Shown here piece by piece: positions 649-60,995 of a stretch of 64,000 nucleotides of DNA; position 1 is the first letter of the stretch; every line of letters starts with the position of its first letter. The translations under genes and the position numbers were made by a program. Under the pieces are notes generated by a model. The model worked only from the letters and a program-made list of their open reading frames with translations, was not told where the DNA came from and did no database searches. The DNA comes from a virus (Duplodnaviria > Caudoviricetes), in IMG/VR virus record IMGVR_UViG_3300049009_000874, positions 125,230-189,229 of that record; one strand, written 5' to 3'.

Positions 649-1362
649 ATGGATTTCAAGCAATTCCTGTATACCGAGTCCTCGAAGCCAGCCATGTTGG
701 GCAAATACCGCATCACGTACATAGACTCCAATAAATTCAGGAAGAAATCACTTCTGAACGTCGAGTTCTGCACCGCCGCGGTCCACGACGATTTCCCCAG
801 ACACATAAAGAAGGACGAGATATGGATTGACGACAGCATCAAGCCGAAGGAGATACCAACCATCCTCAAGGGTTTGTCTGTCAGGCTGTCGGAAATCGAG
901 AATGGCGGGAAGAACCCGTACGAGAAGGGAATCGCCGCGGAGAAAAAAGAAAGGAACGAACACAGGGAAAAGCTGAAGAAGAAGAAGCACATGACCATAA
1001 AGGACTACAGCGGCGAAATCGAAGTGTATCTGGTCAGCGGCAAGGCTGTCAGGGACAACTACAAGACGGATTTCTCGCAGGGGGGTCACGGCTACGTCTA
1101 CGACTGGATACCGAAGAACGAGATATGGATAGAGGACGAGGAGAAGGACGAGATTGCTCCGATCCTTGCCCACGAGTACATCGAGATGGTCCTCATGAAG
1201 GAGAGCGGCTGGAAGTATCCCAAAGCCCACGAGATGGCTTCCGACATAGAGCAGCAACTCAGGAAGAAAAACCTGACGATGAAGGGGATCGACAAGGTTG
1301 TCAAGAACATATCGATACTTGTGCCGGAAGTAAACAAGCCAAGATCCAAGAGAAAAAGCTAA
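649..1362 (+). CDS. Putative zincin-like protein with N-terminal FxxFL..E tag
   Basis: Starts MDFKQFLYTES. Two internal IxKxEIWI[DE] repeats and ILAHEYIE (HExxE). CATACATA motif lies 5 nt upstream. Confidence 0.55.
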   Translation: MDFKQFLYTESSKPAMLGKYRITYIDSNKFRKKSLLNVEFCTAAVHDDFPRHIKKDEIWIDDSIKPKEIPTILKGLSVRLSEIENGGKNPYEKGIAAEKKERNEHREKLKKKKHMTIKDYSGEIEVYLVSGKAVRDNYKTDFSQGGHGYVYDWIPKNEIWIEDEEKDEIAPILAHEYIEMVLMKESGWKYPKAHEMASDIEQQLRKKNLTMKGIDKVVKNISILVPEVNKPRSKRKS

Positions 1363-1364
1363 GC

Positions 1365-2000
1365 CTATCTCGCCACGGACCTCTCCACAGCCTTGTCGAA
1401 AAGGCTGAGGAACTTCGACATCGGCTTCAGTTCTGGGTACGGTATCTCGTAGTTCCTGTGGTTTCCCCTCCTGGCGCAGACTATAGGTCGGGAGACTATC
1501 TTCTCCCTGGTCTGGTATCCGATATACGATATGACCGCTTCCCCCGCAGCCTTGTCCTCGCTCTCGACGTAGGCGAACGCGTATATGTCGGACCCCAACT
1601 CCTGCCTTTTCCCGTATTCGTCTATGCACCTTATCAAAGCGAGACCGTAGTTCCTAGCCGCCGTCTTCACGTCGAGACCATAGGAGAAGACGTCGAAGTC
1701 GGTGACGTTCCCGAACTCCTTGTACCCGAGGTTCACCGGCATCCCAGTCATCATGCCGAAAGCCATCTCCCCCAGTATCCCGACCCTCTCGGTCTTCCTC
1801 GGGTCGGAGGAGCTGTTGAGCATGCCCGGATTCCAGCCGCCTCCCACCTTGTTCTTCGTCCACCACGCGCTCGAAGCCGTCTCGCAAGCCTCGTAGTCCG
1901 AGCCTCTGACGACTATCTTGTGGACGTCCAGCTCCACTCCGTTGAACCATTCCCTGTGCACGTTCGGACCGACCCTCGTCGGGAAATAAAGATCATCCAT
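1365..2000 (-). CDS. Putative PD-(D/E)XK nuclease-fold protein
   Basis: Start reassigned to MDDLYF at 2000, directly after the MTase stop. Pattern GILGEMAF...TDFDV...LDVKT. Confidence 0.5.
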   Translation of the reverse strand: MDDLYFPTRVGPNVHREWFNGVELDVHKIVVRGSDYEACETASSAWWTKNKVGGGWNPGMLNSSSDPRKTERVGILGEMAFGMMTGMPVNLGYKEFGNVTDFDVFSYGLDVKTAARNYGLALIRCIDEYGKRQELGSDIYAFAYVESEDKAAGEAVISYIGYQTREKIVSRPIVCARRGNHRNYEIPYPELKPMSKFLSLFDKAVERSVAR

Positions 2001-2002
2001 TT

Positions 2003-2872
2003 TCACGCCTCGCAGTTGGATATTATGAGTTCGCCCTTTCTGTTGGAAAGCCTTTTCCCGCTGTCCTTGTCCTTGTTCGCGTTGATGCTGTAGTTGACGT
2101 CGATCTCCTTCACGCAAGCCCAGGAGTATATGTCCCTTATCTCCCTGCAGTCGTCGTAGGACAGGACCCACCTGTGGCTCGTCTTCCTGAGCATCTTCGA
2201 CAGGCGGAGGTGGTCGAACGAAGTCATCCCGCACTGGTACAGTTCGTTGCCCTTGATGTAGTACGGAGGGTCTATGTACAAGAGGACGTCCGACCCGCCC
2301 TCGAGCACCAGGGTCTCGAAATCGTGGACCGAGCATGATTCCTTGCGAACCTTGACGCCCGACAAGACATGGTGTATCTTGTCTATCTTCGAGCATATGT
2401 TCTTCGGGTTCCACCTGCACCCGATCTTGTATTCCGAAGCCTGGCTCATTCCGCCTAGCGGACCGCCTGACATGGTCCCGAGACCAGAGTACGAAGTCTG
2501 GTGTATCGCCATCTTCTTGAAGCCGACCGCAACGATCCCGTCGATGACCTCCGGAACGCGGTCGATGGCGGAAAGTTCAGCCTTCATGTCGCAGAACGAT
2601 ACTACGGATGGCGTGAACGAACGAACCATGTCCTTCAGTTGCTCGTGGTGCGATATGACGGAAGTCCACAGGCATGATATGCCGACGTCGCGGTCGTTCA
2701 CCCACAAGTCCCTGACTCCAAGGCTGACCATGTGGAGACCTATGCTGCCTCCTCCGAAGAAAGGCTCTCGGTATTGGACGGATCCCAAGCCGGCGGTTGC
2801 GGATTTCTCCAGTTGTTCCGCGATCACGTCCTTGATTTTCGTCTTCCCGCCCGGATACCTGAAAAAAGACAT
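2003..2872 (-). CDS. Dam-family (D12 class) N6-adenine DNA methyltransferase
   Basis: FRYPGGK, EPFFGGGS, VNDRD and YIDPPY motifs. Confidence 0.92.
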   Translation of the reverse strand: MSFFRYPGGKTKIKDVIAEQLEKSATAGLGSVQYREPFFGGGSIGLHMVSLGVRDLWVNDRDVGISCLWTSVISHHEQLKDMVRSFTPSVVSFCDMKAELSAIDRVPEVIDGIVAVGFKKMAIHQTSYSGLGTMSGGPLGGMSQASEYKIGCRWNPKNICSKIDKIHHVLSGVKVRKESCSVHDFETLVLEGGSDVLLYIDPPYYIKGNELYQCGMTSFDHLRLSKMLRKTSHRWVLSYDDCREIRDIYSWACVKEIDVNYSINANKDKDSGKRLSNRKGELIISNCEA

Positions 2873-3862: not shown

Positions 3863-5566
3863 ATGCGCGCTTATTCTTTTCATGAATTTTTTAATCACAA
3901 AAAACGATCTGACGTTTTTGCATTTCTGGATTCTCGCCACGGGACGATCGACGAATCTGTTCTCCAAGAGCTTTATTTCAATTTCGGCAACGATGATGTC
4001 GTGAATGAAGCTTGGGGAGATTGGCTGAGCAAAGCCAAAGGGATGGCGCAAAACGTGGCGGCTGGAGCGGCGAACGTGGCGGCTGGAGCGGTCAAAGGCG
4101 CGAAAGAGTTCGGAAAAGGGTTCGTGCAAGGGTCGCAGCAAGGCTACAAAGACACAAGGACCGATGCCGGCGTGAAGAAAATCGAAAATATCGCAGCCAG
4201 CATCGGCGAGCTCAGCAAGAAATTCACCCAGAAATACAAGATCGACCCAGTAACGGCAGCCATCATGATTGGCTCCGGCGCGACTGGCGGCTTGGGAACA
4301 ATACCTATGCTCGCGATGGCTGTAGGATTGAGAAAAGGCAGCGCTTGGCTTGCCGGGAAAGGAATGGACGCGGCTTGGAAAAAAGCGACCGGTAAAACGC
4401 CGGCAGAACTGGACCAGATGTGGCAGTCGAAAATCAGCGACACCAAGGCGCCAGCAACAGCAGCCCCAGCGGCGATGGCGAGACCGGCAGCACCGCAACC
4501 AGCCCCAGCGGCGATGGCGAGACCGGCAGCACCGCAACCAGCCCCAGCGGCGATGGCGAGACCGGCAGCCCCCGACTCCGACCAGTTCCATTACGAGACG
4601 TTCAATAGATCGAAAACCTCGTTTGTCGCTTTCTTGGAAAACAAGGACGCCGGTTTGTACCAGAACATAATCGACGAGGGGATGTGGGACAGCGCGAAAG
4701 GATTTTTCACCGGCGCCCTGAACAAAGGCGCAGACGTAGCCAGAGGATACGCAAAAGACATCGAGGATCAAGGATTCGCGAGGGCGACCGGGTCGCTGGT
4801 AGGCAAAGGCGCGGGCAAAGCCGCGGGAACTTTTTCGAACTCGGTTATTGTCTTCGCGAAAAGCCTGCAAAACGCTGGATCGTTCATGGTCAACAACCCA
4901 GTCAAGACGGGAACAATGCTGATGGCTATCGCAGCCGGATCCATGATCGGGAGCTACGGTACTCAAGCAATCAACAGTTTCATCGACAAGCCGTCCGCAG
5001 ACCAAATCCAGGACTTGACCGCCGCCGCAAAACAAGCTGGCGTCCCAGACGGCGAAATACAATCAATGCATCGAGATTCCGGATATTCCGGTAGCGGCGG
5101 CGATTTCGACACGAAAGACACCTCATATTCCGGTGCTGGCGGCGATTTCGGCGATGCTCCGGGTGCAGAAAAATTCTTACCATCAAAAGACATAAAAGGT
5201 TGGAATAGTGATCTTGGTGATTTCACAATAAAAGAACTCCCGAACGGACAACAAGTAGTGCAAACAACTGATGGAAATCTCTATACACACACAAGGGGTA
5301 ATGTTTCTGGTCAAGAAATTTATCAAAAAGTAGATGATGTAACTGGGAAAGCAATTGGAAAACCCACTTATCACCCGATACAGGACAATGGTCCAACTGG
5401 TGCAGATTTCGTTCCGAAAGACCCGAACTACAAAGGTTTGTATTCTGCGACTCCTAAGTTAAACGATCTGGACGGAACAACCATGCCACGGCTTGATGGG
5501 CAAACCTTTGATGGAAAAACTTGGAGTGGCGGAAAGATGTCTATACCAACCCATAGAGGTGGATAG
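3863..5566 (+). CDS. Putative virion internal protein with two hydrophobic modules and an Ala/Pro linker
   Basis: GAGG RBS. Starts MRAYSFHEFF, with an internal SFVAFLENKD...IIDEG. Gly/Ala-rich hydrophobic helices. Confidence 0.7.
   Translation: MRAYSFHEFFNHKKRSDVFAFLDSRHGTIDESVLQELYFNFGNDDVVNEAWGDWLSKAKGMAQNVAAGAANVAAGAVKGAKEFGKGFVQGSQQGYKDTRTDAGVKKIENIAASIGELSKKFTQKYKIDPVTAAIMIGSGATGGLGTIPMLAMAVGLRKGSAWLAGKGMDAAWKKATGKTPAELDQMWQSKISDTKAPATAAPAAMARPAAPQPAPAAMARPAAPQPAPAAMARPAAPDSDQFHYETFNRSKTSFVAFLENKDAGLYQNIIDEGMWDSAKGFFTGALNKGADVARGYAKDIEDQGFARATGSLVGKGAGKAAGTFSNSVIVFAKSLQNAGSFMVNNPVKTGTMLMAIAAGSMIGSYGTQAINSFIDKPSADQIQDLTAAAKQAGVPDGEIQSMHRDSGYSGSGGDFDTKDTSYSGAGGDFGDAPGAEKFLPSKDIKGWNSDLGDFTIKELPNGQQVVQTTDGNLYTHTRGNVSGQEIYQKVDDVTGKAIGKPTYHPIQDNGPTGADFVPKDPNYKGLYSATPKLNDLDGTTMPRLDGQTFDGKTWSGGKMSIPTHRGG
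4461..4571 (+). repeat. About three copies of a 39-bp in-frame tandem repeat (PAAMARPAAPQPA)
   Basis: cagccccagcggcgatggcgagaccggcagcaccgcaac is repeated. Confidence 0.92.
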
Positions 5567-6353: not shown

Positions 6354-7844
6354 ATGGCAGACAATCAACTTTGGGCATGGGGAGAGGGAAATGGAGGACA
6401 ATTAGGAGATGGAACGACAGTAAGCAAATCATCTCCAGTTCAAGTCTTGGGTTCCAACTACAACTGGAGAAGCGTTTATAGTGGTACTTTTCATTCCACT
6501 GGCATCAAGAAAAACAACACCCTATGGACTTGGGGTCTCAATTATGCAGGACAATTAGGAAACGGAACGATAATCAACGAATCAGTTCCAATACAAATTG
6601 GAGAGTCCGATTGGAGCCAGTCTTCATGTGGTGGTTTCCATACAATAGCAATAAAGACTGACGGAACGCTATGGTCTTGGGGCGAAGGTTCATTTGGCGA
6701 ACTCGGAGACGAAACAACAACAGATAGATCTTCACCAGTACAAGTCGGCAACCAAACGACTTGGAAAGAAGTTTCGAGTGGTGTTTTCACCGTTTCGGCA
6801 ATAAAGACCAATGGTACGCTATGGGCTTGGGGCGAAGGTCTTTCTGGACAAATTGGAAATGGGGAAACTGGAGTTTGGAGTTCCCCTGTTCAGATCGGAA
6901 ACGAAACGAATTGGAAACAGGTTTCCAATGGCTATTCTCACACCGCAGCAGTAAAGACCGATGGTACGCTATGGGCTTGGGGAGATAATTCTTATGGTCG
7001 ATTGGGAGATGGAACCCAAACAGACACATCGTCTCCGATACAGATTGGAAACGAAACAAACTGGAAGCAAGTGGATTGCGGAGCCTCACATACCGCTGCG
7101 ATAAAAACGAACGGAACTCTTTGGGCTTGGGGCGAAGGTTCGAATGGACAATTGGGCGATGGAAACCAAACACAAACATCATCCCCGATACAAGTCGGAA
7201 ACGGGAGCAATTGGTTAAAGGTTTCCTGCGGATCAGACTTCACCTGTGCTGTCAAGACAGACAAAACCATGTGGACTTGGGGAGATAATTATAAGGGAAA
7301 ATTGGGCGATGGAACCACAGAAGACAAATCATCACCAGTCCAGATAAGTGGCGACAAATATTGGAGCGATGTGGCTTGCGGATTTTTAAACACCCTAGCT
7401 ATAACTGGTAATGCCCCAGTAAGGTTCAATTTCGTACATCCGACCTACACGTTCGAGGTCGTCACATACACGCCAGAAAGCCTGATAGCCCTGGCTCCCT
7501 ACCCGGACTCGTTGGAGCATCTGGTTCTTAACCTGCAGGCTCAGGAAGTCGTCGTCAACAACAGAAATTACAAGCATGGAGACAGGTTCACGGAATTCGG
7601 TTCAAGAGCCATACGACTCAAACAGTTGTATGTTGATTCAAGCGATCCCGTGCTGAAGATAGTCTGTGACGACGGTTACAGATTCGAGAACAACAGATGC
7701 GTTCTTGACTGTTCCGAAGGCGAAACGGCATGCGGTGGCGTTTGTTCCAACCTGCTTACCGACAATGACAATTGCGGGTCGTGCGCCAATGTTTGTCCAG
7801 ATGGATTTTCATGCACAAATGGAGTTTGCGCAACACCAACATAA
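6354..7844 (+). CDS. RCC1-repeat beta-propeller protein with C-terminal Cys-rich (STIG1-like) module
   Basis: About seven GTLWAWGxxxxGQLGxG...SSPxQ repeats. C-terminal CGGVC..LLTDNDNCGSCANVC...C..GVC. Confidence 0.9.
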   Translation: MADNQLWAWGEGNGGQLGDGTTVSKSSPVQVLGSNYNWRSVYSGTFHSTGIKKNNTLWTWGLNYAGQLGNGTIINESVPIQIGESDWSQSSCGGFHTIAIKTDGTLWSWGEGSFGELGDETTTDRSSPVQVGNQTTWKEVSSGVFTVSAIKTNGTLWAWGEGLSGQIGNGETGVWSSPVQIGNETNWKQVSNGYSHTAAVKTDGTLWAWGDNSYGRLGDGTQTDTSSPIQIGNETNWKQVDCGASHTAAIKTNGTLWAWGEGSNGQLGDGNQTQTSSPIQVGNGSNWLKVSCGSDFTCAVKTDKTMWTWGDNYKGKLGDGTTEDKSSPVQISGDKYWSDVACGFLNTLAITGNAPVRFNFVHPTYTFEVVTYTPESLIALAPYPDSLEHLVLNLQAQEVVVNNRNYKHGDRFTEFGSRAIRLKQLYVDSSDPVLKIVCDDGYRFENNRCVLDCSEGETACGGVCSNLLTDNDNCGSCANVCPDGFSCTNGVCATPT

Positions 7845-7881: not shown

Positions 7882-8913
7882 TCAGGGATTTAACTTGACG
7901 AGAGATACGAACTCCTCGAACTTGTAGTCCTTGAAGCCATCCACGTACGTAAGCCTCACGCTTACATTCTCCTTCAGGCACTCCACGACAAAATTCTTCA
8001 GCTTGTCCTCCCTGTCCCCGAGCGGATCTGACACGATCTGGAGTTCGATGTCGTCCAGAGTGTGCTGTATGACCTTGTACCTTTTGATCCCGAAAGAATC
8101 GTGGTAATCCCGGCTCCCGACCAACGGCCATTTCCTGTCGCCGTTCGGGAGAACGAACATGTTCCTGATCCTTCCCTTGATGTTCTTTATGGTTTGCAGG
8201 CTCCTGCCGCATCCGCATTCCCCCAGTTCTATGTGGTCGCCGTTCTTGTACCTCCTGATGTACGGGTTCGTGAGGGTGCTTATGATCATCCCGCCATCGT
8301 GGTCGACCTCGACAATCTGGTTCTCCATGACATGGTGCACGCTAGGGTTGTCGGGGCACTGGATGGATATCGTGCCGCACTCCTCCGAAGAGAACATGGA
8401 TCCCCCCATCTCCCCGGTGCCCTTGTGGTCGATGAAGTTGCTGACCTTGCCCATGTCGAGTTGTTTCCTTATGGACGGCAGGCATTGCAGGTAATGGGGG
8501 TTCTTCTCCTCGACCCATGACTGTATCCTCGATATCGGCTCGAATCCCATGAAGAAGGTGTTACCCTGGACCTTGGCTATCGTCCTCGGGACCCCCCATG
8601 ATTCCTTGTCGTTCATTTTGGCGTCGCCTCTTATCACTGCTATGTTTTTCGACAGGTCCCATTTCCTCCAGAAGAACTCCCTTATGTTCGTGGCGAAGTA
8701 CCATATCTGGTCTCCGTAAGATTTCTCCACGGACACCGGTTCCCCGGTGGAGCCGGACGTCCTGCAGGTGTACAATCCCTTTTCCATTGGCGTGGAGCGA
8801 AGAGCATCCTTGCTCATTATCGGCAAGCCTCTGACCCGGTCGAAGTCGGTCTCGTGAAGCCTCTCGCTGTACCGGAACCCGTCGAAAACCGATTTTATGT
8901 CTGTTTCTCTCAT
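7882..8913 (-). CDS. Phenylacetate-CoA ligase-like (PaaK/CapK family) adenylate-forming enzyme
   Basis: TSGSTGEP, SSEECG, IRRYKNGD and CGCGR...IKGR. Start reassigned to MRETDIK, giving an ATGA overlap with the upstream gene. Confidence 0.8.
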   Translation of the reverse strand: MRETDIKSVFDGFRYSERLHETDFDRVRGLPIMSKDALRSTPMEKGLYTCRTSGSTGEPVSVEKSYGDQIWYFATNIREFFWRKWDLSKNIAVIRGDAKMNDKESWGVPRTIAKVQGNTFFMGFEPISRIQSWVEEKNPHYLQCLPSIRKQLDMGKVSNFIDHKGTGEMGGSMFSSEECGTISIQCPDNPSVHHVMENQIVEVDHDGGMIISTLTNPYIRRYKNGDHIELGECGCGRSLQTIKNIKGRIRNMFVLPNGDRKWPLVGSRDYHDSFGIKRYKVIQHTLDDIELQIVSDPLGDREDKLKNFVVECLKENVSVRLTYVDGFKDYKFEEFVSLVKLNP

Positions 8914-16605: not shown

Positions 16606-16872
16606 ATGAGAAGATTCGCCCAATACCTAGAAGAGAGAGACCCGAGATTGCATGGTCGGATCGTCGACGAGGGAATAGCCAAATGGGTCGGGGACAAGGC
16701 TAAAGGGGTTTGGAAGGGTGCCAAGAAGAAATTGCAATCGGCGAAAAACGTCGTTCAATCAGCGAAAGCCCTAGCCGGTGAAGCCGGCGAAGCGCTCAGG
16801 GGAGTGACTGACCGGTGGGCTGCGAAAAAACAAGGCGGATACGAGTATGAGGCAAATCCAGAGAACTGGTGA
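16606..16872 (+). CDS. Small tagged helical protein
   Basis: MRRFAQYLEERDPRL...IVDEG; AAGGA RBS. Confidence 0.65.
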   Translation: MRRFAQYLEERDPRLHGRIVDEGIAKWVGDKAKGVWKGAKKKLQSAKNVVQSAKALAGEAGEALRGVTDRWAAKKQGGYEYEANPENW

Positions 16873-34761: not shown

Positions 34762-34840
34762 TAGCAGTTCGTCTCATTATATGATTGGGGCAAGTACCCC
34801 AGCGGGAGGTCGAAGCATTGTAAGCGAAAAACAATTTTTC

Positions 34841-48378: not shown

Positions 48379-48408
48379 AAAAACAGGCGCGGAAACCATA
48401 GATAAAAC

Positions 48409-49803: not shown

Positions 49804-50142
49804 ATGAAGACATTCAGCGAGTACATCACGTACCGAGAGGGCGACGGCGAGTCGGATTTCAGCGCGCAAAATCAAGCGGAATCGAAACTGCCCCACCGTC
49901 CAGTAGTTGCCCACAAAATATCATTAGTAGATCCATCCGCGGAAAAAACGGCAGTGTCTGTGATACAAGCTATCCGTAAACTTGACAAAAAAATTCCAAA
50001 AGAGCTCACGCCAGAACAACAAGAATTTTTGAGTTCATATAAAAGTATTTTTCCTAAAGGACTCAACATTCCTTTGAATCCTGACCAATTCAGGAGCCTC
50101 ATGAAATTTAAAAAGTCTTTTCCCGACATGTTTAAAAGTTAA
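49804..50142 (+). CDS. Small tagged protein
   Basis: MKTFSEYITYREG; GAGG RBS. Confidence 0.7.
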   Translation: MKTFSEYITYREGDGESDFSAQNQAESKLPHRPVVAHKISLVDPSAEKTAVSVIQAIRKLDKKIPKELTPEQQEFLSSYKSIFPKGLNIPLNPDQFRSLMKFKKSFPDMFKS

Positions 50143-51501: not shown

Positions 51502-52029
51502 TCATAGGTCTTCGACGGAGTAAGGCTTGTAGTCCCGAAACATCTTGTAGATGCTCTCGGGCTTGACGCCGTGCAGGTTCTTCCCCCCCAAGGCGTCCGA
51601 CCACCGCCGCAGCGCCGCGTCGTTGCCAACCTTGTCCTTGAGAAGAGGCTCGATCTCCCTCCACCACTCGGAGTTCGGCTCGCGTATCTCCGTCCTGTAG
51701 CCGTGTCGGCTCGCGATGTCGAAGTAAGGTCTGGCGAGAGAAGCCTTGAGGTGGGTCTCGTCCGCCACCACAGGAGTGACACCCTTGCTGACCGCGTCCT
51801 CGACCCTTGCGTAGTTCCACCTGCGCGCGGCGCGAAGACCGATGATGCTCTCCGGCACCTCGTACTCGCCGCCGACGCCGAAGTAGTCGTCCACCGAGAA
51901 CACCTTGGACTCGTCGCCGCCGGCAAGGCGCAACGCCTCCGTGGACTTGCCGGACCCGGGGACACCGCGCATCACGTAAAGAACCCTGTCGGCTCCCTCC
52001 AGCCCCTCAAGCCACGCCTTGTACCTCAC
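51502..52029 (-). CDS. P-loop kinase (AAA_33 / polynucleotide kinase, N4BP2-like)
   Basis: LYVMRGVPGSGKST, FSVDDYF, VVADETH and NLHGV; starts MRYKAWLEGLEG. Confidence 0.85.
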   Translation of the reverse strand: MRYKAWLEGLEGADRVLYVMRGVPGSGKSTEALRLAGGDESKVFSVDDYFGVGGEYEVPESIIGLRAARRWNYARVEDAVSKGVTPVVADETHLKASLARPYFDIASRHGYRTEIREPNSEWWREIEPLLKDKVGNDAALRRWSDALGGKNLHGVKPESIYKMFRDYKPYSVEDL

Positions 52030-53189
52030 GCGCCCCCCGAGTTCAGACCCGACAGCACGCGGTCGACCCCGTCGTCCCTCGACTCCTTCCCGGCGTGGTG
52101 GTCGGGCGTGATCCTGTACCTCGTGTCGTACGGCTCCGACATGTCCCTCGCGTCGATGCCGTGGAACTTCTCCGAGCCGGCGCGGACCTTGTGGGCGGGC
52201 ACCGGCGTCGTGCTCCCGTACAGCGGTCGGTAGTGGTATATGACCTTGCCCACCGCGTTCCTCAGGGCTGCCGCTATCTCAGCCTGGATCAGCAGCGACT
52301 TGCCGCGCAGGAACTCCTCCGAAAGCTTCGATGGCTTCAGCTCAGGAGCCACGTAAGAGCCTAGCTGGTGCATCGCCCTGCCGCCCGGGAGATGCTCCCC
52401 GGCGAACCTCGCGTCGTTGGTCAGCCTCACCTTGCCCGTCATGATGTACTGGGAAACCAGCTCGTAGACCATCTCGTTCAGCGACGATATCCCCCTCTTC
52501 GAAATCGCCATCCGCGACCTCTCGTCCCTACCATCCACCTTCCACCTGTGCGAGCTCTCCCCGGACTTGTGCGGGAAGTACCGCGACGCCACCTGCATCA
52601 CGTGGAACCGGTTCCCCTCCGGCTCCTCGCCGTGGCTCTCCTTGTGCGCCGCGAATATGTCGTACAGCACCCTCATGATGCCATCCTTGTGGACCGCGTT
52701 CTCCTCCCACGTGCCCGAAGGCTTGTCGAACAGAGCGTGACCCACGTTGTGGAACAGTATCCACTTGCTCACGCCGTCGCCGGAAGACCTGTTCTTCACG
52801 AAGGTTATGTGACCGTCGCGAGACAGACCGTGCTCCCTCATGTAGCCCTCGACCGCCTCCTCGTACTTGCCGAAACGCGATTCCGAAGGGTCGAGCTCCA
52901 GGAATATGATGTTCCACTTGTAGCCACCGCCCTCCGAGCCTACGTCGAAACCCTCGGGCGTCCGACCTAGGGTCTTCCCGACCGACGAGAAATAACCGGG
53001 ATCCCTTATTTCCCTTCGGTCACGCCTGTTGAACGGCGAGTAGTAGAACGGCTTGCCCTTCTTGGGGTCGGAGTCGCGGACCCCCATCGAAGCCTCGTAG
53101 TCCGCCGGATCGTCGCTGCGGAAACTGTGACCGCCGTGCGAGAGCTGCTCCTGCAAGCCAAGCCAATCCCTGAAAGATTCCGTATTCAT
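52026..53189 (-). CDS. Tagged hypothetical protein with degenerate zincin motif
   Basis: MNTESFRDWLGLQE; WILFHNVGHALF...NEMVYEL. Confidence 0.6.
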   Translation of the reverse strand: MNTESFRDWLGLQEQLSHGGHSFRSDDPADYEASMGVRDSDPKKGKPFYYSPFNRRDRREIRDPGYFSSVGKTLGRTPEGFDVGSEGGGYKWNIIFLELDPSESRFGKYEEAVEGYMREHGLSRDGHITFVKNRSSGDGVSKWILFHNVGHALFDKPSGTWEENAVHKDGIMRVLYDIFAAHKESHGEEPEGNRFHVMQVASRYFPHKSGESSHRWKVDGRDERSRMAISKRGISSLNEMVYELVSQYIMTGKVRLTNDARFAGEHLPGGRAMHQLGSYVAPELKPSKLSEEFLRGKSLLIQAEIAAALRNAVGKVIYHYRPLYGSTTPVPAHKVRAGSEKFHGIDARDMSEPYDTRYRITPDHHAGKESRDDGVDRVLSGLNSGGA

Positions 53190-53227
53190 GAAAAACCCCT
53201 ATGATGTTGATGCCCGAAATTCAGCTG

Positions 53228-55264
53228 TCAGACCTCTCCCCGGAGGTGGCGTTTCAGCCATTCTTGGCGGGCGACTAGCAGATAGTCCTTGATCTCTTGC
53301 GTCCTTGCGTTGTCGATGTCATGCTGCTCCACTTTCGCGCCTTTCTCGCACAGGTATTTTATGAGGTCGAGATCGTTGCTGTTGCTCGTCACGTTGAATA
53401 TGGTGCTATCGGCAATCTTCCCAGGGGCTTTCCCCTTGGGCAGTTTCAGCACATCGCCTAGCTTGCCGGCGACTTCATCCCCGAGTAGGTATTTCACGAC
53501 ATCGATATGCCCGCTCACTGCCGCGACCGACACGGCGCCATCACCTATCCTCCCGCCTTTCTCCACCAGGTGCCTCACGATGTCGAGACGACCCGAGCGC
53601 GCCGCGGAGCCTATGGCGTAATTGCCTATCTTCTCGTTCCCGCCTTTCTCCACCAGGTATTCCACGACATCGAGATGCCCATTTCCCGCCGCCGTGGAAA
53701 TAACAGAATCGCCTATGCGCCCACGCTCCCCGACCAGGTATTTCACGATGTCGAGACGACCCATCTTCGCCGCGCCCTCGACAGCGTTGCCTATAGCCCT
53801 CTGCCCTCCTTGCTCGACCAGGTATTTCACGATATCGAAATGCCCCGACGTCGCTGCGAGCTCCACTCCATCGCCCATGTCCGCGCCTTTGCCCATCAGG
53901 TATTTCACGATTTCAATATTTCCATTTCTTATCGAAGTATCGAAGCCATCACCTATTTCCTCGCCCTTATCGACAAGTTCTTTCACCATTTCAAGTTCAT
54001 CGAGGTTGATCGCCTTGGTCACCTTTGAATGTTTGGTGTTGTTCCACACCTCGCCCTTTTGCTTGGGATTCAGCAACGCGTATTCCTGCTTCGACAAATC
54101 ATTTGACGTGCTGTCCCTTAGCACCCTGTTGTGCAGGTAGTAGTCTTTCAGATCCCTCTTGGCGGTTATCTTCGCGAGCTGGTGGTCGTTCACCTTCAGA
54201 CCGGTCTTCGCGTACTGCGTCATGAGCGAGGCGAAATTCTCGTAGACGTAATCGAACTGCTCGTCCGACAGGGCATGACCCCTGCCGACGTACTTTGACT
54301 TCTCGTCGGGCGACAGCGACCTGAACCAGCCAAGGTCTCCGTTGTTCTTCCCAAGCTTCGCCTGCTCCGCGTCCTCCTCCGGCGATTTCGGTATGTTCCT
54401 GAATATGCCCGCGTCGATGCCTCTCTCCCGCAAGTACCTGAAGTAAAGCTCCGGGTCCGAATCTATCCTCTTCTTCTCCGTCGGCGAAAAAGGGTCCTGC
54501 ATGGTTTTCGCAGTATGGTTGGCTCGGTCGGTCAGCTCGATCCTGTCCCGCGTCGCGTCGACCACGACTATAGCCAGGTCGTCGGTCCTCGTGCTGTCGT
54601 AAACGAAGTGGAAGGTCGACACCTTGTCGTCCCTGTAGGACTGGAACATGGTGTTAGCCGGCTGCGAGATGCAGAAACTCTCGCCTTTCCCCAGTATGAT
54701 GCATTGGTTGGCAGAGTTCGCCTTGTAGACCTTTATCTTGCCGTCCGCCGACTGCGCCATCAGCTCCTGGTCGCTCACGTCGCCCTGCACCGGCGCGTTG
54801 CGTACCCTGTCCTCGTACTTCTTGCCGTGGAGGACCTCCGTCCAGCCGAGGTGGCTCGACATGTGGGGGTTGTCCACCTTGAGGTCGTCGCCCACGGACA
54901 GAACCGGCATCTTGCTGTCATTGACCAGCTTCGCGTAGTCGGCGATGTCCGTCCTGAGCGAGTTCAGGTCCTTCACCCTCATGTCCGCGTAGTAGAAAGC
55001 CGCCAGGGCGACTATCTTCCCCTGCAGCTTCGTCGGCACCTTGGCGGGAAGAATCCCCTGGATCTGATTCAGCAACGACTCGTCTCCGCCGAGTATCTCC
55101 CTCGCTATGTCTGCCGCCTTCCTCGCCTCCGCCAGCAGCAGCCATTCCCTGAAGGAATCCATCGTGGGGAGACCGCCCCGGACCGCGTCCCTGCCCTCGC
55201 CCACCTGAACCGAAAACCCGTAAAAGCTCCTCATCGAATTGATTCTCCAGTTTGTTGCCATCAC
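53228..55264 (-). CDS. Ankyrin-repeat protein with N-terminal tag (alternative start 55162)
   Basis: About eight AAxxGHxDIVKYLVEKG repeats; MDSFREWLLLAEA; middle GKGESFCIS...FQSY domain. Confidence 0.88.
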   Translation of the reverse strand: MMATNWRINSMRSFYGFSVQVGEGRDAVRGGLPTMDSFREWLLLAEARKAADIAREILGGDESLLNQIQGILPAKVPTKLQGKIVALAAFYYADMRVKDLNSLRTDIADYAKLVNDSKMPVLSVGDDLKVDNPHMSSHLGWTEVLHGKKYEDRVRNAPVQGDVSDQELMAQSADGKIKVYKANSANQCIILGKGESFCISQPANTMFQSYRDDKVSTFHFVYDSTRTDDLAIVVVDATRDRIELTDRANHTAKTMQDPFSPTEKKRIDSDPELYFRYLRERGIDAGIFRNIPKSPEEDAEQAKLGKNNGDLGWFRSLSPDEKSKYVGRGHALSDEQFDYVYENFASLMTQYAKTGLKVNDHQLAKITAKRDLKDYYLHNRVLRDSTSNDLSKQEYALLNPKQKGEVWNNTKHSKVTKAINLDELEMVKELVDKGEEIGDGFDTSIRNGNIEIVKYLMGKGADMGDGVELAATSGHFDIVKYLVEQGGQRAIGNAVEGAAKMGRLDIVKYLVGERGRIGDSVISTAAGNGHLDVVEYLVEKGGNEKIGNYAIGSAARSGRLDIVRHLVEKGGRIGDGAVSVAAVSGHIDVVKYLLGDEVAGKLGDVLKLPKGKAPGKIADSTIFNVTSNSNDLDLIKYLCEKGAKVEQHDIDNARTQEIKDYLLVARQEWLKRHLRGEV

Positions 55265-55890
55265 ACCCCCAGCGCCTGCGGCACCGCAACCCCCAGCCTC
55301 TCCAGCTGGCGGTCCACCGCGTCCCTGATCTCGTCGGTCGGTATCGTGTGACCACCGCCAAGCAGCACCAGCTCCAGACCGTAATCCACCTCCAGCTCCA
55401 TGCTGTCCGAAGCCGGCACGCTGAGATCCCTCCTCCCGTGCACCACTATCGTGTCCCTAGGCAACGACGAGGGGTCGGCTCCGAAAACCTTCCAAGCCGG
55501 CGCGCCGAGCACGAACTTCGCCCCCGGATAACGACCAGCCACCTCCATGGCGACGGCGCCGCCCTGGCTCGTGCCCACCACCACGTCCGGCACGAACGAG
55601 CCCATCTCGCCGTCGTGCTTCCTGACGTTCGCAGCCAGGTGGTCCCCGGCGACCCTCTCTATACCCGCGTGGACACCGACTGGCAGGTGCCGCTTAACCC
55701 TGCCGAGGTACGCCGCGAAACGGCTCGTCGTCGTCCCAACCTGCTTCACCTCGTAACCCATCGCAGCCAGCTCCCGCGGTCCGACGCCGCTGCTACCCAT
55801 TCCCGTTATCCAAAGCACGCGCGGGCTCCTGCCCTCCCCCTCAAGGGAAGACTCGAGCCACGCGCGGAATCCGGACATCGTTTCAGCCAT
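55261..55890 (-). CDS. Alpha/beta-hydrolase with N-terminal tag
   Basis: VVGTSQGG nucleophile elbow, VHGRRD..VP and GGH; MSGFRAWLE. Confidence 0.85.
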   Translation of the reverse strand: MAETMSGFRAWLESSLEGEGRSPRVLWITGMGSSGVGPRELAAMGYEVKQVGTTTSRFAAYLGRVKRHLPVGVHAGIERVAGDHLAANVRKHDGEMGSFVPDVVVGTSQGGAVAMEVAGRYPGAKFVLGAPAWKVFGADPSSLPRDTIVVHGRRDLSVPASDSMELEVDYGLELVLLGGGHTIPTDEIRDAVDRQLERLGVAVPQALGV

Positions 55891-55965
55891 GAATGTAGGT
55901 ATGATTCCCTCTTCCGAAAAAACGGGAACTATGTTAACATCTCCCGCGAACCACGGAGAAGACGA

Positions 55966-56709
55966 ATGAGATACTTCCAAGGCATACCCGAAGACTTCCT
56001 CAGAAAATCTTTCGAATACGACCCGGAAAGCCCGTCTGGTCTCGTAAAATTGCGTACATTCCAAGAACAGAGAGATAAAGCCAACCATGTCTGTAAACCA
56101 AAGGGACAAACCAGGTTCTTAGCGCATATCCACATCGACGGTAAAAACCACCAGAAATCGTTCCCATTCGGCAAAAACGGCAAATCGGAACTACAAGCCG
56201 AATCGGAAGCACACGCATTCATCGAGAAAACCAAAAACGAAAACCCAGAATCCATCAAGACAGTAGGATATAAAAGAAAAGACGGATACTGGGACAATAT
56301 AGTCATGTACAACGGCAAAAGAATTAACGTCTTAGTCCACCGACTCGTCTTCTTCCTCTGTAACAAGAAGATCGACATCGAAAAAAAGAAGATCGACCAC
56401 ATAGACAACAACCGCTCCAACAACAGAAAAGAAAACCTCCAGATAGCAACATCCTCCCAGAACAGCCACAACGCGAAACTTTCGAAAAGGAACAATACAG
56501 GCACAAAGGGGCTTTCTGACTACGTAGAGAGACACTATTTCTACGCACAAGTTATGAACAAAAGGAAATCACACTACAAACTATTCCCCTACGGCAAAAC
56601 CCCGACCGAAGAACACAAGGAAAAAATCAGAGCTACTGCCGTCATCTGGCTCAGGGAAACCAGGCAACGTCTCCACGGAGAATTCGCGAACCACGGAGAT
56701 ACAGAATGA
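55966..56709 (+). CDS. HNH/AP2-like endonuclease, copy 1
   Basis: Start reassigned to MRYFQG. VHRLVF, IDHIDNNRSNNRKENL and C-terminal LHGEFANHG. Confidence 0.9.
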   Translation: MRYFQGIPEDFLRKSFEYDPESPSGLVKLRTFQEQRDKANHVCKPKGQTRFLAHIHIDGKNHQKSFPFGKNGKSELQAESEAHAFIEKTKNENPESIKTVGYKRKDGYWDNIVMYNGKRINVLVHRLVFFLCNKKIDIEKKKIDHIDNNRSNNRKENLQIATSSQNSHNAKLSKRNNTGTKGLSDYVERHYFYAQVMNKRKSHYKLFPYGKTPTEEHKEKIRATAVIWLRETRQRLHGEFANHGDTE

Positions 56710-57443
56710 GATACTTCAAAGGTATACCAGAGGACTTCCTCAGAGAGTCGTTCCAATACGACCCGGACAGCCAGTCTGGTCTCGTAAAATTGCGTTCACG
56801 CCTAGAAATTACAGAGAATGCAAGCCACATCTCTAAACAAAAAACCAGTCTCCAAGCGCGGATCACGATCGACGGGAAAAAATACCGCAAACATTTCTCT
56901 TTCGGAGCAAATGGCAAATCGGAACGACAAGCCGAATCGGAAGCACACGCATTCATCGAGAAAACCAAAAAAGAAAACCCGGAAACCATCAAGACTGCAG
57001 GCTATATAAACAAATACGGATACTGGCGTAATGGAATCAACTACAAGGGCAAAAGAATAAACTTCGCAGTCCACAGACTTGTCTTCTTCCTCTGCAACGA
57101 AAACGTCGACATCGAAAAAAAGAATATCGACCACAAGGACAACAACCCCTCCAACAACAGAAAAGAAAACCTCCGAACCGGCACAAAAGAACAAAACCAA
57201 CACAACAAGAAACTGTCGAAGAACAACACGTCAGGCACAAAGGGGCTTCATGACGACGTAAATTGGCATCGTTTCCACGCGCAGGTCAGAATCAACCGAA
57301 AAAATCACCAGAAATACTTCCCCTACGGCGAAAACCCAACCGAAGAACACAAGGAAAAAATCAGAGCAATAGCCATCATCTGGCTCAGGGAAACAAGGGA
57401 AAGACTCCACGGAGACTTTACGAACCACGGAGAAGACGAATGA
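56706..57443 (+). CDS. HNH/AP2-like endonuclease, copy 2
   Basis: Same architecture; ATGA overlap. Confidence 0.9.
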   Translation: MRYFKGIPEDFLRESFQYDPDSQSGLVKLRSRLEITENASHISKQKTSLQARITIDGKKYRKHFSFGANGKSERQAESEAHAFIEKTKKENPETIKTAGYINKYGYWRNGINYKGKRINFAVHRLVFFLCNENVDIEKKNIDHKDNNPSNNRKENLRTGTKEQNQHNKKLSKNNTSGTKGLHDDVNWHRFHAQVRINRKNHQKYFPYGENPTEEHKEKIRAIAIIWLRETRERLHGDFTNHGEDE

Positions 57444-58183
57444 GATACTTCAAAGGCGTACCGGAATACTTCCTCAGAGAAACATTCGAATACGACCCAA
57501 ACAGCCCCTCAGGTCTACTACGACTTCGCACACACTCAGAACGGAGAGAGAAAGCCAACCATGTTCGTAAACAAAAAGGAGTAAATTCCCTTCGAGCGCA
57601 GATCATGATCGACGGAAAAAAATACCAGAAATGTTTCCCCTTCGGCATGAACGGCAAATCGGAACGACAAGCCGAATCGGAAGCACATGCCTTCATCGAG
57701 AACACACAAAACGAAAACCTACAAACCATCAAGACGGCAGGACATAAAAGCACAGGCGGATACTGGGAGGCGAAAATCACGTACAACGGCAAAAGAATTA
57801 ACTTCTCAGTCCACAGACTCGTCTTCTTCTTCCACAACAATGACATAGACATAGAAGGAATGGAAATCGATCACATAGACAACAACCGCTCCAACAACAA
57901 AAAAGAAAACCTCCGAGACGGCACAAGGTCACAAAACCAACACAACAGTAAAATCAACAAGAACAACACGTCAGGCACAAAGGGGCTTCATGACGACGTA
58001 AATTGGCACCGTTTCCACGCGCAGGTCAAGTGCAATGGAAAACTCCACCAGAAATACTTCCCCTACGGAAAAACCCCGACCAAAAAACACAAAGCCAAAA
58101 TCAAAGCCATCGCCGTCAAGTGGCTCAGGAAGACAAGGGAAAAACTCCACGGAGACTTTTTCAACCACGGAGAAGACGAATGA
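57440..58183 (+). CDS. HNH/AP2-like endonuclease, copy 3
   Basis: Same architecture; ATGA overlap. Confidence 0.9.
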   Translation: MRYFKGVPEYFLRETFEYDPNSPSGLLRLRTHSERREKANHVRKQKGVNSLRAQIMIDGKKYQKCFPFGMNGKSERQAESEAHAFIENTQNENLQTIKTAGHKSTGGYWEAKITYNGKRINFSVHRLVFFFHNNDIDIEGMEIDHIDNNRSNNKKENLRDGTRSQNQHNSKINKNNTSGTKGLHDDVNWHRFHAQVKCNGKLHQKYFPYGKTPTKKHKAKIKAIAVKWLRKTREKLHGDFFNHGEDE

Positions 58184-58923
58184 GATACTTCAAAGGCGTA
58201 CCCGAGGACTTCCTCAGAAAGTCGTTCGAATACGACCCGGACAGCCCCTCGTGTCTCGTGCGACTTCGCTCATACTCAGAACGGAAAGATAATGCCAACC
58301 ACGTTCGTAAACGAAAAGGAGTAAACGGTTTTCGAGCGCAGATCGTGATCGACGGTAAATGCCACCAAAAATACTTCTCCTTCGGCGCAAACGGCAAATC
58401 GGAGCGACAAGCCGAATCGGAAGCACATGCCTTCATCGAGAAAACCAAAAAAGAAAACCCGGAAACCGTCAAGACGGCAGGACGTAAAGACAAACGCGGA
58501 TACTGGACGTCGGCAATAGCGTACAACGGCAAAATCATCAAATTGCTCGTCCACCGACTCGTCTTCTTCCTCTGCAACGAAAACGTCTACATCGAAGGAA
58601 TGGAGATCGACCACATAGACAACAACCCGTCCAACAACAGAAAAGAAAACCTCCGAGACGGCACAAAAGAACAAAACCAACACAACACGAAACTGTCGAA
58701 GAGTAACAAGTCAGGAACAAAGGGGTTTCGTGACAACGTAAAAACCAAAACGTTTCAGGCGAGCGTAAGGTGCAACGGAAAACAACACCATAAATACTTC
58801 CCCTACGGCAAAACCCCGACCGAAGAACACAAGGAAAAAATCAGAGCCATTGCCATCATTTGGCTCAGGGAAACAAGGCAACGTCTCCACGGAGAATTCG
58901 CGAACCACGGAGATACAGAATGA
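58180..58923 (+). CDS. HNH/AP2-like endonuclease, copy 4
   Basis: Same architecture; ATGA overlap. Confidence 0.9.
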   Translation: MRYFKGVPEDFLRKSFEYDPDSPSCLVRLRSYSERKDNANHVRKRKGVNGFRAQIVIDGKCHQKYFSFGANGKSERQAESEAHAFIEKTKKENPETVKTAGRKDKRGYWTSAIAYNGKIIKLLVHRLVFFLCNENVYIEGMEIDHIDNNPSNNRKENLRDGTKEQNQHNTKLSKSNKSGTKGFRDNVKTKTFQASVRCNGKQHHKYFPYGKTPTEEHKEKIRAIAIIWLRETRQRLHGEFANHGDTE

Positions 58924-59663
58924 GATACTTCCAGAATATACCCGAGGACTTCCTCAGAGATGCGTTCCAATACGACCCGGACAGCCCGTCTGGTCTCGTA
59001 AGATTGCGCTCACAATCAGAAAATAGAGATAAAGCCAGCCACGTCCGTAAACGAAAGGGAGTAAACGGTTTTCACGCGCAGATCATGATCGAAGGGAAAC
59101 GCCACCAGAAATACTTCCCATTCGGTAGGAACGGCAAATCGGAGCGACAAGCCGAATCGGAAGCGCACGCATTCATCGAGAAAACAAAAACGGAAAATCT
59201 TCAAACCATCAAGACGGCAGGATATAAAACCAATCGAGGATACTGGAGGAATTGCATCAGGTACAAGGGCAAGCCCATTAACTTCCTTGTCCACAGACTC
59301 GTATTCTTCCTCTGCAACGAAAACGTCGACATCGAAAAAAAGACGATCGACCACGATGACAACAACCCGTCCAACAACAGAAAAGAAAACCTCCAGATAG
59401 CAACATCCTCCCAGAACAGCCACAACGCGAAACTGTCGAAGAGAAACAAGTTGGGCACAAAGGGGCTTTTCGACAACGTAAAGAGACACTATTTCCAAGC
59501 GCAGGTCATGATCGACGGGAAACGCCACCAGAAAACCTTCCCCTACGGCAAAACCCCGACCAAAAAGCACAAAGCCAAAATCAGAGCCATTGCCATCATC
59601 TGGCTCAGGGAAACCAGACAACGTCTCCACGGAGACTTTACGAACCACGGAGACGACGAATGA
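58920..59663 (+). CDS. HNH/AP2-like endonuclease, copy 5
   Basis: Same architecture; ATGA overlap. Confidence 0.9.
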   Translation: MRYFQNIPEDFLRDAFQYDPDSPSGLVRLRSQSENRDKASHVRKRKGVNGFHAQIMIEGKRHQKYFPFGRNGKSERQAESEAHAFIEKTKTENLQTIKTAGYKTNRGYWRNCIRYKGKPINFLVHRLVFFLCNENVDIEKKTIDHDDNNPSNNRKENLQIATSSQNSHNAKLSKRNKLGTKGLFDNVKRHYFQAQVMIDGKRHQKTFPYGKTPTKKHKAKIRAIAIIWLRETRQRLHGDFTNHGDDE

Positions 59664-60394
59664 GATACTTCCAAGGTATACCAGAAAGCTTCCTCAGAAA
59701 ATCTTTCGAATACGACCCGGAAAGCCCGTCTGGTCTCGTAAAATTGCGTACATTCCAAGAACAGAGAGATAAAGCCAGCCACGTCCATAAACGAAAAGGA
59801 CAAAACGGTTTTCAAGCGCAGATCATGATCGACGGAAAAAACCATCGGAAATCGTTCCCCTTCGGCAGGAACGGCAAATCGGAGCAACAAGCCGAATCGG
59901 AAGCACACGCCTTCATCGAGAAAATACAAAACGAAAACCCGGAAATTACCAAGACGGCAGGATGTAAAAGAAAAGACGGATACTGGATAGATGCAATCAC
60001 GTGCAACGGCAAAAAAATTTACTTCCTTGTCCACCGACTCGTCTTCTTTTTCTGCAACAAGAAGATCGACATCGAAAAAAAGAAGATCGACCACAAGGAC
60101 AACAACCGCTCCAACAACAGAAAAGAAAACCTCCGAACCGGCACAACCTCTCAAAATGCCTGCAACGCGAAACTGTCGAAAAGGAACACCTCAGGCACAA
60201 AGGGGCTTTTCGACAACGTAAAGAGACACCGTTTCCAAGCGCAGGTCAGAATCAACCGAAAAAACCACCAGAAAGTCTTCCACTACGGCAAAACCCCGAC
60301 CAAAAAGCACAAAGCCAAAATCAGAGCCATCGCCGAAGCATGGCTCAGGGAAACAAGGCAACGACTCCACAAAGACTTTTTCAACCACGGATAA
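59660..60394 (+). CDS. HNH/AP2-like endonuclease, copy 6
   Basis: Same architecture; ends FFNHG. Confidence 0.9.
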   Translation: MRYFQGIPESFLRKSFEYDPESPSGLVKLRTFQEQRDKASHVHKRKGQNGFQAQIMIDGKNHRKSFPFGRNGKSEQQAESEAHAFIEKIQNENPEITKTAGCKRKDGYWIDAITCNGKKIYFLVHRLVFFFCNKKIDIEKKKIDHKDNNRSNNRKENLRTGTTSQNACNAKLSKRNTSGTKGLFDNVKRHRFQAQVRINRKNHQKVFHYGKTPTKKHKAKIRAIAEAWLRETRQRLHKDFFNHG

Positions 60395-60455
60395 GAGACG
60401 AAGATACGCGCAAGACAAATCGGACGCCCAGCCCCCTACATACACAAGGGGGCAA

Positions 60456-60995
60456 ATGACGACTTTCACAGAATACGCCAGAAGACGGGACGGACAATCC
60501 GGAAACCAAACACCAGACGGCAACGACATGATGTCCGAGGAATGGCTCGGTAAGGTGTGGGGCTTCCTCGCCCGCATAGCCACCACCGCATCCGCGGCTG
60601 CGGGAGCCGTATCCCTCGGGCAGGTCGCCGGCGTCGACATCGACCAGATGGACCAGATGGGCATAGGCGTAGAGCAGATCGCCGATTTCATCAAGAGGGC
60701 GAAACTCACCGCCGAACAGATCAAGATCCTCGACTCCCTCAGGGAGGAGATGACGCGCCGACTCCGGGACAAGTGCCACGCCGACCTCGATAGGTTCAGG
60801 GGCTCCGCCGACTGGCTCAAGGAGAAACGGGACAGCGCCGAAGCCTGCGACAAATACTGCAAGCTCAAGAAGGACCCAAAAGCCTGCGGCAAATCCGGCA
60901 AGATTGTTTACGACTTCGGCAGGTACAAGAGAGTCGCCAGGAACCCCTTCCCCAAGAAATCCAGAACCACAAACCACATGGAGCGCCAGGCATGA
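60456..60995 (+). CDS. Tagged hypothetical protein
   Basis: MTTFTEY...MMSEEW; hydrophobic segment; CTACATA and GGGGG upstream. Confidence 0.65.
   Translation: MTTFTEYARRRDGQSGNQTPDGNDMMSEEWLGKVWGFLARIATTASAAAGAVSLGQVAGVDIDQMDQMGIGVEQIADFIKRAKLTAEQIKILDSLREEMTRRLRDKCHADLDRFRGSADWLKEKRDSAEACDKYCKLKKDPKACGKSGKIVYDFGRYKRVARNPFPKKSRTTNHMERQA

Follow-up and report, generated by a model that had tools for sequence, protein, structure and literature searches.

A short N-terminal tag resembling the T4 capsid-targeting sequence on many diverse proteins of a huge-phage genome fragment

The capsid-targeting sequence (CTS) of bacteriophage T4 is a peptide of 10-20 residues at the extreme N-terminus of otherwise unrelated, fast-evolving proteins. 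Amber-suppressor mutagenesis of the CTS of internal protein IPIII assigned targeting to residues 4 and 7 and processing to residues 8 and 10, and the review that reports this work also suggests that the CTS enables T4-like phages to take up a range of proteins (PMC9026906). In this report, we analyze a window of 64,000 nucleotides, the last third of the linear, 189,229-bp IMG/VR virus record IMGVR_UViG_3300049009_000874 (positions 125,230 to 189,229; Duplodnaviria, Caudoviricetes), in which genes for otherwise unrelated, fast-evolving proteins share a peptide of the same length at the same place, hereafter the tag. Our main finding is that this shared N-terminus is probably a T4-type CTS, belonging to a propeptide system with a much larger cargo than that of T4.

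Propeptides of another sort are known from the phiKZ-like giants (phiKZ, 201phi2-1, SPN3US), in which the gp175/gp245 proteases, of the S77 family and related to gp21, cut many head-internal proteins after Glu. A role in directing proteins into the prohead has been inferred for these propeptides, and conserved N-termini recur within paralogue families. Most of the propeptides, however, measure 80-160 residues, they lack a short motif in common, and cleavage occurs at S/A/G-x-Glu; the present tag, in contrast, is short, uniform and T4-like, and the major capsid protein (MCP) of its clade is of the gp23 type. T4 Alt, a 682-aa ADP-ribosyltransferase (ART), likewise owes its loading into the head to an N-terminal propeptide and is then injected, but this propeptide, MELITELFDE, is of a different sequence class from the tag. 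The CTS is therefore a known kind of signal, and what appears to be new here, judging from the predicted proteins, is a much larger and more varied cargo in a clade of huge phages. Among the 21 papers surveyed that use the term 'capsid targeting sequence', none deals with metagenomic huge phages.

The tag at gene starts and its match to the T4 sequence

CheckV estimates the completeness of the record at 39%, which makes it a fragment of a huge phage of about 480 kb. A motif-blind gene caller relying on codon usage called 235 genes in the contig, 73 of them in the window. The preliminary description, made from the window alone, had listed 27 open reading frames (ORFs) that start M-x(1-4)-[FY]-x-x-[WFYM]; all were found in place, including nine tandem paralogues that start MxFxEWLRIDE or MISFYDMWLRxDE. 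Together these 27 genes take up 25.4 kb of the window, and the whole contig holds about 35-40 tagged genes. Among those tested, glycosyltransferases, an FkbM methyltransferase and an HNH_3 gene lack the tag, as had been stated.

This loose pattern fits 32 of the 235 blind-called starts of the contig, against 11.1 +/- 3.1 (maximum 19) when residues 2-30 are shuffled. A tighter core pattern, M.{0,4}[FY][KRST..][EDQ..][WFYM][LIMFVA], was found near the start of 28/235 genes and at 5/1334 internal ATGs of the contig (18/73 and 1/388, respectively, in the window), so that enrichment at the N-terminus is present over shuffled and internal controls alike. Since the core pattern had been written after the examples were seen, it was run unchanged on other genomes as an independent check. 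It matched near the start of 39/895 genes, versus 16/3027 internal ATGs, in a 595-kb relative (GenBank LR756511.1), and 27/201, 11/161 and 8/94 genes in the fragments G001, G004 and G003, respectively; in all, five related genomes or fragments show the N-terminal enrichment. When every gapped residue pair within the first 12 positions of the 595-kb phage's proteins was scored without bias, F..W ranked first (34 observed, 8.5 expected; p = 4e-11), ahead of K.F, T..E and F.E. Regular-expression matches at an internal Met of PrkA (contig 33788), at contig 89821 and 135318, and at a Dam methylase (MSFFRYPGGK) were discarded as false.

To describe the tag, 63 non-redundant examples from two genomes were aligned on the Phe (position 0), the nine tandem paralogues being counted once. 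Phe is present in 62/63, followed by K/R at +1 (51%), E/D at +2 (65%, plus 14 Q), an aromatic residue at +3 (W/F/Y in 60/63; W 31, F 18, Y 11) and L (31), F (10), V (7), I (6) or M (5) at +4 (59/63 in total). The first Glu lies at +5 to +8 from the Phe in 46/63 tags, and where it is at +8 the P3 residue (+6) is most often Leu. The consensus over the first 10-15 residues is M-(K)-(T/S/N)-F-(K/R)-(E/Q/D)-(W/F/Y)-(L/F/V/I/M)-x(0-3)-E. The tag is neutral to acidic, and since it has neither a hydrophobic core nor a twin-arginine motif, it is not a Sec, Tat or membrane signal.

The Phe, second aromatic, aliphatic residue and Glu of the tag coincide with residues 4, 7, 8 and 10 of the T4 CTS; both peptides have aromatics at 4 and 7, an aliphatic at 8 and Glu soon after. 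In the T4 record, IPII and IPIII start MKTYQEFIAE and IPI starts MKTFKEFTST...ITE. The relative has tags starting MKTFKEF, MKTFKDW and MKTFNQW, and some, such as MKTFKEFAALKE, nearly equal the start of IPI. In 68 kb of T4, the core pattern picks out at frame starts IPII, IPIII and one other ORF. The two peptides differ in that Trp is the commonest second aromatic here, and in that the Glu lies at a variable distance (+5 to +8), whereas it is fixed at residue 10 in the T4 CTS. They differ also in how they are known, the function of the T4 CTS having been defined experimentally and the present tag being described from sequence alone. Finally, where T4 has three internal proteins, Alt and core proteins, there are about 35-40 tagged genes per 189 kb here and at least 50 in the 595-kb relative, and the predicted cargo, unlike that of T4, extends to a 12-member family and to large proteins that are enzyme-like or built of repeats.

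The tag is selected at the protein level. Codons for the conserved Phe are TTC 22 and TTT 6 in this contig (50% GC), versus TTT 29 and TTC 9 in the relative (42% GC); all six Leu codons are used at the conserved positions, and substitutions are chemically conservative (W/F/Y; L/I/V/M/F). The DNA of the nine paralogue leaders is 80% identical, with a different codon at 35% of identical residues, and EWLRIDE is encoded with other codons in one different gene. Codons thus vary with genome GC while the residues stay, which marks a protein signal and not a nucleotide signal. Judged by sequence clustering, the tag is also portable across some 66 unrelated bodies: blastp (1e-5) sorted 73 tagged proteins from two genomes into 66 body families, homologues of the GP88 and kinase bodies occur without the tag, and one body family carries two different leaders. 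Orthologues, for their part, keep the tag and its Glu between phages of 33% and 50% GC, with a hydrophobic P3 before the Glu, as in LLQE/GKTSGK, KINE/GKTSGK and IIQE/GQTSGK (the slash follows the Glu); further sites kept between orthologues are KMRE/SSP, KVKE/SSS and KIRE/SSP, and also KIKE.

Tagged genes share a promoter-like element as well. The T4 late promoter is TATAAATA, and a box TA[ATG]ATA was sought within 40 nt upstream of genes. It precedes 31/39 tagged versus 105/856 untagged genes of the relative (p = 4e-20), and 11/28 versus 20/207 in this contig (p = 2e-4). In most cases the box ends 4-8 nt before the ATG (for example at window 48396-48408, CATAGATAAAAC followed by ATG), and Shine-Dalgarno motifs are rarer in the tagged genes of the relative (12/39 versus 416/856 untagged). 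A box abutting the ATG together with fewer Shine-Dalgarno motifs suggests that late mRNAs of the clade are leaderless or nearly so. The T4 late genes alt, 22, 24 and inh, by comparison, have leaders of about 20-25 nt with a Shine-Dalgarno motif. Other box-bearing genes of the relative include at least 14 more tag variants missed by the regular expression, together with large unannotated ORFs. A gp55-like 'sigma-2-only' protein (contig 7895-8458) had no Pfam match and was not used as evidence for T4-type late transcription.

Head genes of related phages

As the contig holds no head genes, complete relatives were sought through the phage DnaE. The closest is LR756511.1 (595,163 bp), whose DnaE is 49% identical and which shares 84 of the 235 proteins. 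Its head gene cluster includes an S77 protease (525953-526621; 96 bits, 35% identical to gp21) and a gp23-type MCP (291 bits) with about 68 N-terminal residues, a propeptide, ahead of the domain. The relative further encodes a gp20-like portal and a homologue of gp4. Between the protease and capsid genes lies a 310-aa ORF whose density of [LIVM]xE reaches the 99.5th proteome percentile, as would be expected for a scaffold that the protease breaks down, and we took it as the scaffold on position and composition only; T4 gp22, gp67 and gp68 gave no tblastn match in LR756511.1. Neither S77 protease nor gp23 was found in seven fragments obtained through DnaE (four 67-69% and three 21-26% identical), but all are partial, so that this does not amount to absence from the genomes. 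The gp21-like protease and gp22-like scaffold that the preliminary description proposed to look for elsewhere in the genome are absent from the 39%-complete contig, while an S77 protease and an ORF in scaffold position are found in its relative.

A survey based on the MCP covered 388 related IMG/VR contigs. In the best 80 of these 388, the LR756511.1-type MCP is 78-92% conserved, its loci span 35-58% GC, and its neighborhood often includes tagged genes; in one 343-kb contig, this MCP occurs together with a DnaE 55% identical to that of the present phage. These relationships argue strongly that this exact lineage would have the same gp20/gp21/gp23 head module. T4 and the present clade have in common a head module of this type and putative late-type promoters like TATAAATA.

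Tagged genes also lie close to the head genes. Two or three are found just downstream of the capsid gene of LR756511.1, and one of them (MLTWTEFLEARQ; 521964-522461, - strand) encodes a protein with a NADAR domain (PF08719, E = 2e-19). NADAR enzymes reverse DNA ADP-ribosylation, and this protein is plausibly a packaged counter-defence enzyme. A small tagged gene (110-135 aa; MKTFQDYVSLKE, MKTFSDFISLKE and others), about 3.7 kb upstream of the capsid gene and on the opposite strand, adjoins the portal and protease genes and is conserved in many contigs of the capsid-defined clade; its product may be a core component, in a position comparable to that of T4 gp67/gp68.

Tagged proteins and neighboring genes of the window

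The tagged genes of the window are listed in Table 1, together with those bearing a second leader. Only 6 of the 73 called genes have a homologue in the 595-kb relative; the window set is therefore lineage-specific, and in this it resembles the internal-protein loci of T-even phages, which are variable. PHROGs assigned no function to ten tagged proteins, for most of the tagged proteins Pfam offered none, and PDB sequence searches with three of them returned nothing significant. Where functions had been proposed in the preliminary description, Pfam bears out the kinase (AAA_33), ankyrin and GP88 labels. Phage homologues of the GP88 protein align only from residue ~85-127 on, so that its tag and linker are an add-on. 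The 'HD hydrolase' label of 21379-22119 and the 'esterase' label are not confirmed at Pfam thresholds and are tentative. As for the 'ART-like' label of 50538-51479, no Pfam match was found and what stands is a language-model lead; an ART fold is possible for this body, although the lead is to another ART clade (DUF3990, ExoA, Arr) than that of T4 Alt. A zinc-peptidase lead for 52026-53189 was dropped, its Atlas score being only 0.87 and the protein having no HExxH motif. Elsewhere in the contig, a phospholipase A2 (PLA2) is tagged.

Table 1. Window genes that start with the tag or with the second leader (HMM, hidden Markov model)
Position	Strand	N-terminal start	Length and remarks
649-1362	+	MDFKQFLYTE	237 aa; no Pfam or PHROG match
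3863-5566	+	MRAYSFHEFF	567 aa; weak tag, first hydrophobic-x-Glu at residue 31; G001 orthologue starts MNTFSEFF
13411-15678	+	MNFRDYID...NLTE	755 aa; no function from Pfam
15675-16586	+	MKFKEWFVVNE	303 aa; distant paralogue-family member (HMM E = 2e-4); G001 homologue starts MRFKNWIIINE
16606-16872	+	MRRFAQYLEE	88 aa
20416-21372	+	MSFYKNQIPISEQDWMESLMEQ	second leader on paralogue-family body (HMM E = 3e-18)
21379-22119	-	MENKTFRDYL	246 aa; phrog_6931 (function unknown); E = 0.17 to poly(A) polymerase
22134-22835	-	MISFYDMCLRMLE	233 aa; tenth paralogue-family member (HMM E = 6e-41)
27550-29412	+	MNFKEFIVQDWVEDLLE	620 aa; GP88 domain at residues 116-337 (PF17338, 115 bits)
29414-29863, 29910-30374	+	YYSNQKRKLSDEEWMESV	two tandem genes with second leader
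33334-33660	+	MQNFKEWLNNRDPEMLNE	108 aa; very basic (net charge +21); G001 orthologue, 84% identical, keeps tag
37451-38731, 38742-39899, 39896-40531, 40543-41550, 41547-42392, 42389-43240, 43237-44085, 44082-44942, 44949-45956	-		nine tandem tagged paralogues
48409-49191	+	MRFKNWLANE	260 aa; CATAGATA box 4 nt 5' of ATG
49244-49759	+	MKYSFRQFQ	171 aa; weak tag
49804-50142	+	MKTFSEYITYRE	112 aa
50192-50530	+	MAHYTEKNPISEQAWMDSV	second leader
50538-51479	+	MNFKKWLLSE	313 aa; no Pfam match; possible ART fold (Atlas language-model lead: DUF3990, ExoA, Arr clusters at 0.87-0.91)
51502-52029	-	MRYKAWLEGLE (GTG start)	175 aa; AAA_33 P-loop kinase (E = 2.5e-10); homologue in relative (W01) without tag
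52026-53189	-	MNTESFRDWLGLQE	387 aa; no function from Pfam
53228-55162	-	MDSFREWLLLAE	644 aa; ankyrin repeats (Ank_2, E = 1.7e-32)
55261-55878	-	MSGFRAWLESSLE	205 aa; weak alpha/beta-hydrolase signal (E ~2e-3, under Pfam cut-offs)
60456-60995	+	MTTFTEYARRRD	179 aa; weak tag

The paralogue family, first counted at 13 members, has 12 by HMM. Each of the nine tandem members consists of the leader M..F..WLR[IL]DE[LI]..S.[IVL]DSSGVELE, a variable insert and the body, and in the alignment the 27-residue leader is followed at once by inserts of 0 to ~170 residues. An AlphaFold2 model (mean pLDDT 84) presents tag residues 1-20 as disordered and of low confidence beside a well-folded body. Searched against the PDB with Foldseek, this model gave no match at E <= 0.001, and no function was assigned to the family by fold: the weak VIA-align matches, GNAT/Mom-like for residues 18-218 and Tudor/MBT-like for residues 225-335, reach Z <= 6.0, below the level separating real from common arrangements. 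Relatives of the family were found neither in IMG/VR (peptide patterns) nor in GenBank phages (tblastn), only 34 protein clusters match it, all from close relatives, and a DNA pattern for M-x-F-x-EWLRIDE had no match in viral contigs.

The second leader, M.(Y)..(N/K)(Q/N)...(I/L)S(E/D)(Q/E).WM(E/D)S(V/L)..Q, heads four window genes, all on the + strand. A similar stretch, QDWVEDLLES, follows the CTS-like tag in the GP88 protein, and the second leader was not found in the 595-kb relative.

Other features of the window were noted. Its GC content swings from 39% to 60% (32001-36000 versus 52001-56000), and the contig as a whole is at 50% GC versus 33-34% in its closest relatives, yet orthologous proteins are 45-89% identical. 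Many untagged glycosyltransferases are present (GT90, GT92-like and GT2), among them a two-domain enzyme at 18091-19518 (+) that joins an N-terminal DXD sugar-binding region (Gly_transf_sug, TcdA_TcdB-type GT fold, E ~1e-12) to a GT2 domain. Four to five paralogous HNH_3 genes, starting MRYF(K/Q)G(I/V)PE.FLR and overlapped by long alternative frames, are arrayed at 56706-60394 (+). The 496-aa protein of 6354-7844 (+) has seven RCC1 repeats and a C-terminal STIG1-like cysteine module that also builds a 2198-aa giant protein elsewhere in the contig. A prepilin-type N-methylation motif marks the product of 25353-26444 (+), a DUF1559 protein (PF07596, E = 9e-40). The DUF1559 family is typical of Planctomycetota and relatives, a possible hint at the host.

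Proposed function of the tag and its implications

If the tag works like the T4 CTS, its Phe, second aromatic and aliphatic residue could occupy one face of a helix (i, i+3, i+4 spacing), with no confident helix in the model. Late in infection, the tag would dock its protein to the scaffolding core while the prohead is being assembled; a prohead protease of the gp21 type (Peptidase_S77) would then cut after the nearby hydrophobic-x-Glu and free the body, which would remain in the head with the DNA and enter the next host at infection. Scaffold docking, cleavage at Glu, presence in the virion, injection and an effector role of the bodies are all steps that we infer. The proposal of the preliminary description that the tag is a T4-type CTS gains support from every check that was made: the residue match, portability, retention by orthologues, selection at the protein level, the head module of the clade and the promoter box, and the predicted set of about 27 genes in 64 kb is, as it had foreseen, larger and more varied than that of T4.

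Several observations weigh against this interpretation. In 18 of the 63 tags the Glu is at +5, where P3 would be aromatic, a misfit to L/I-x-E, and the window tags at 3863, 13411, 49244 and 60456 have no nearby Glu. Whereas the internal proteins of T4 are small and basic, some tagged bodies reach 644-755 aa or have a strongly acidic net charge of -25 to -30, though T4 Alt, at 682 residues, is large as well. In the relative, the box is not seen close to the ATG of the core head genes. From the shuffled background, roughly three to four of the 27 window matches may be chance products. Lastly, the contig, only 39% complete, contains no Peptidase_S77 protease, gp23 or portal; as the closest fragments have no head genes either, the head type of this exact lineage is deduced from relatives with DnaE 44-55% identical.

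A T4-type CTS has to be compared with other uses of a conserved N-terminus. The tag could be a recognition peptide for a target other than the capsid, such as the leader for a modifying enzyme or chaperone, or a signal for localisation in the cell, stability or degradation. The second, unrelated leader on four window genes fits with this, as more than one sorting or recognition system may operate. We nevertheless consider it unlikely, because the conserved positions equal the determinants of the T4 CTS residue for residue, because the properties of the tag are not those of Sec, Tat or membrane signals, and because it is accompanied by late-type promoters and a T4-type module of protease, scaffold and MCP. 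A further point, weak since the contig is only a fragment, is that no modifying enzyme of the radical-SAM type is evident in the contig: Radical_SAM (PF04055) had no match there, whereas all 14 control genomes matched. That the tagged proteins are loaded into the head but serve mainly as core, scaffold or DNA-condensing components, and not as injected effectors, seems to us rather improbable. T4 IPII and IPIII, it is true, have no known effector role, IPIII affects head morphogenesis, the small tagged neighbor of the portal and protease genes is conserved in many contigs of the MCP clade, and some cargo is small and very basic, as is the product of 33334-33660. However, the bodies are often enzyme-like or interaction modules (AAA_33 kinase, ankyrin, GP88, PLA2 in the contig and NADAR in the relative), and a lineage-specific set is the pattern of arms-race cargo rather than of conserved structure.

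The remaining explanations do without a peptide signal. The conserved start could be an mRNA or translation feature of leaderless late transcripts, a view that the position of the box in the relative, usually ending 4-8 nt before the ATG, and the lower share of Shine-Dalgarno motifs there would suit. It is very improbable, given that codons at the conserved residues vary freely and track genome GC while residue classes are kept by chemically conservative substitutions. Operon-internal tagged genes with Shine-Dalgarno sites exist, moreover, and the nine paralogues, operon-internal and with strong AAGGAG sites, are still tagged. Least probable of all is a functionless pattern produced by chance and by common descent of a few paralogues. 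The loose pattern is indeed expected at about 11 of 235 starts, and twelve tagged or leader-bearing window genes form one family, but 63 non-redundant tags remain with the nine paralogues counted once, the 73 proteins fall into 66 body families, the unbiased pair test is significant in an independent genome, and orthologues keep the tag across the GC shift from 33% to 50%.

A T4-type CTS being the preferred interpretation, a bolder one can be built upon it, which we regard as doubtful. More than 15% of the genes of the accessory region would encode capsid-loaded, protease-released and injected proteins, readable from sequence through a T4-type tag and a late promoter fused to the start codon (leaderless late mRNAs), and at least two leader classes, the CTS and Y..NQ..ISEQxWMxS on the same body family, would sort cargo to different fates or capsid sub-compartments. 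Were this so, no phage studied so far would come near those of this clade in the number and variety of effectors loaded in advance.

The CTS packaging mechanism has already been used to engineer T4. Should the tag act as it does in T4, sequence alone would suffice to predict which proteins uncultivated huge phages package and inject. Dozens of predicted cargo proteins are at hand here, among them a kinase, an ankyrin protein, a GP88 protein, a possible ART, a phospholipase A2 and the 12-member family; they would be concrete candidates for functions in counter-defence and host takeover exerted ahead of any phage gene expression, and would help to explain part of the 'dark' accessory genome of huge phages. 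It would also suggest that the CTS packaging mechanism of T4 is old and widespread among phages with a gp21/gp23 head module.

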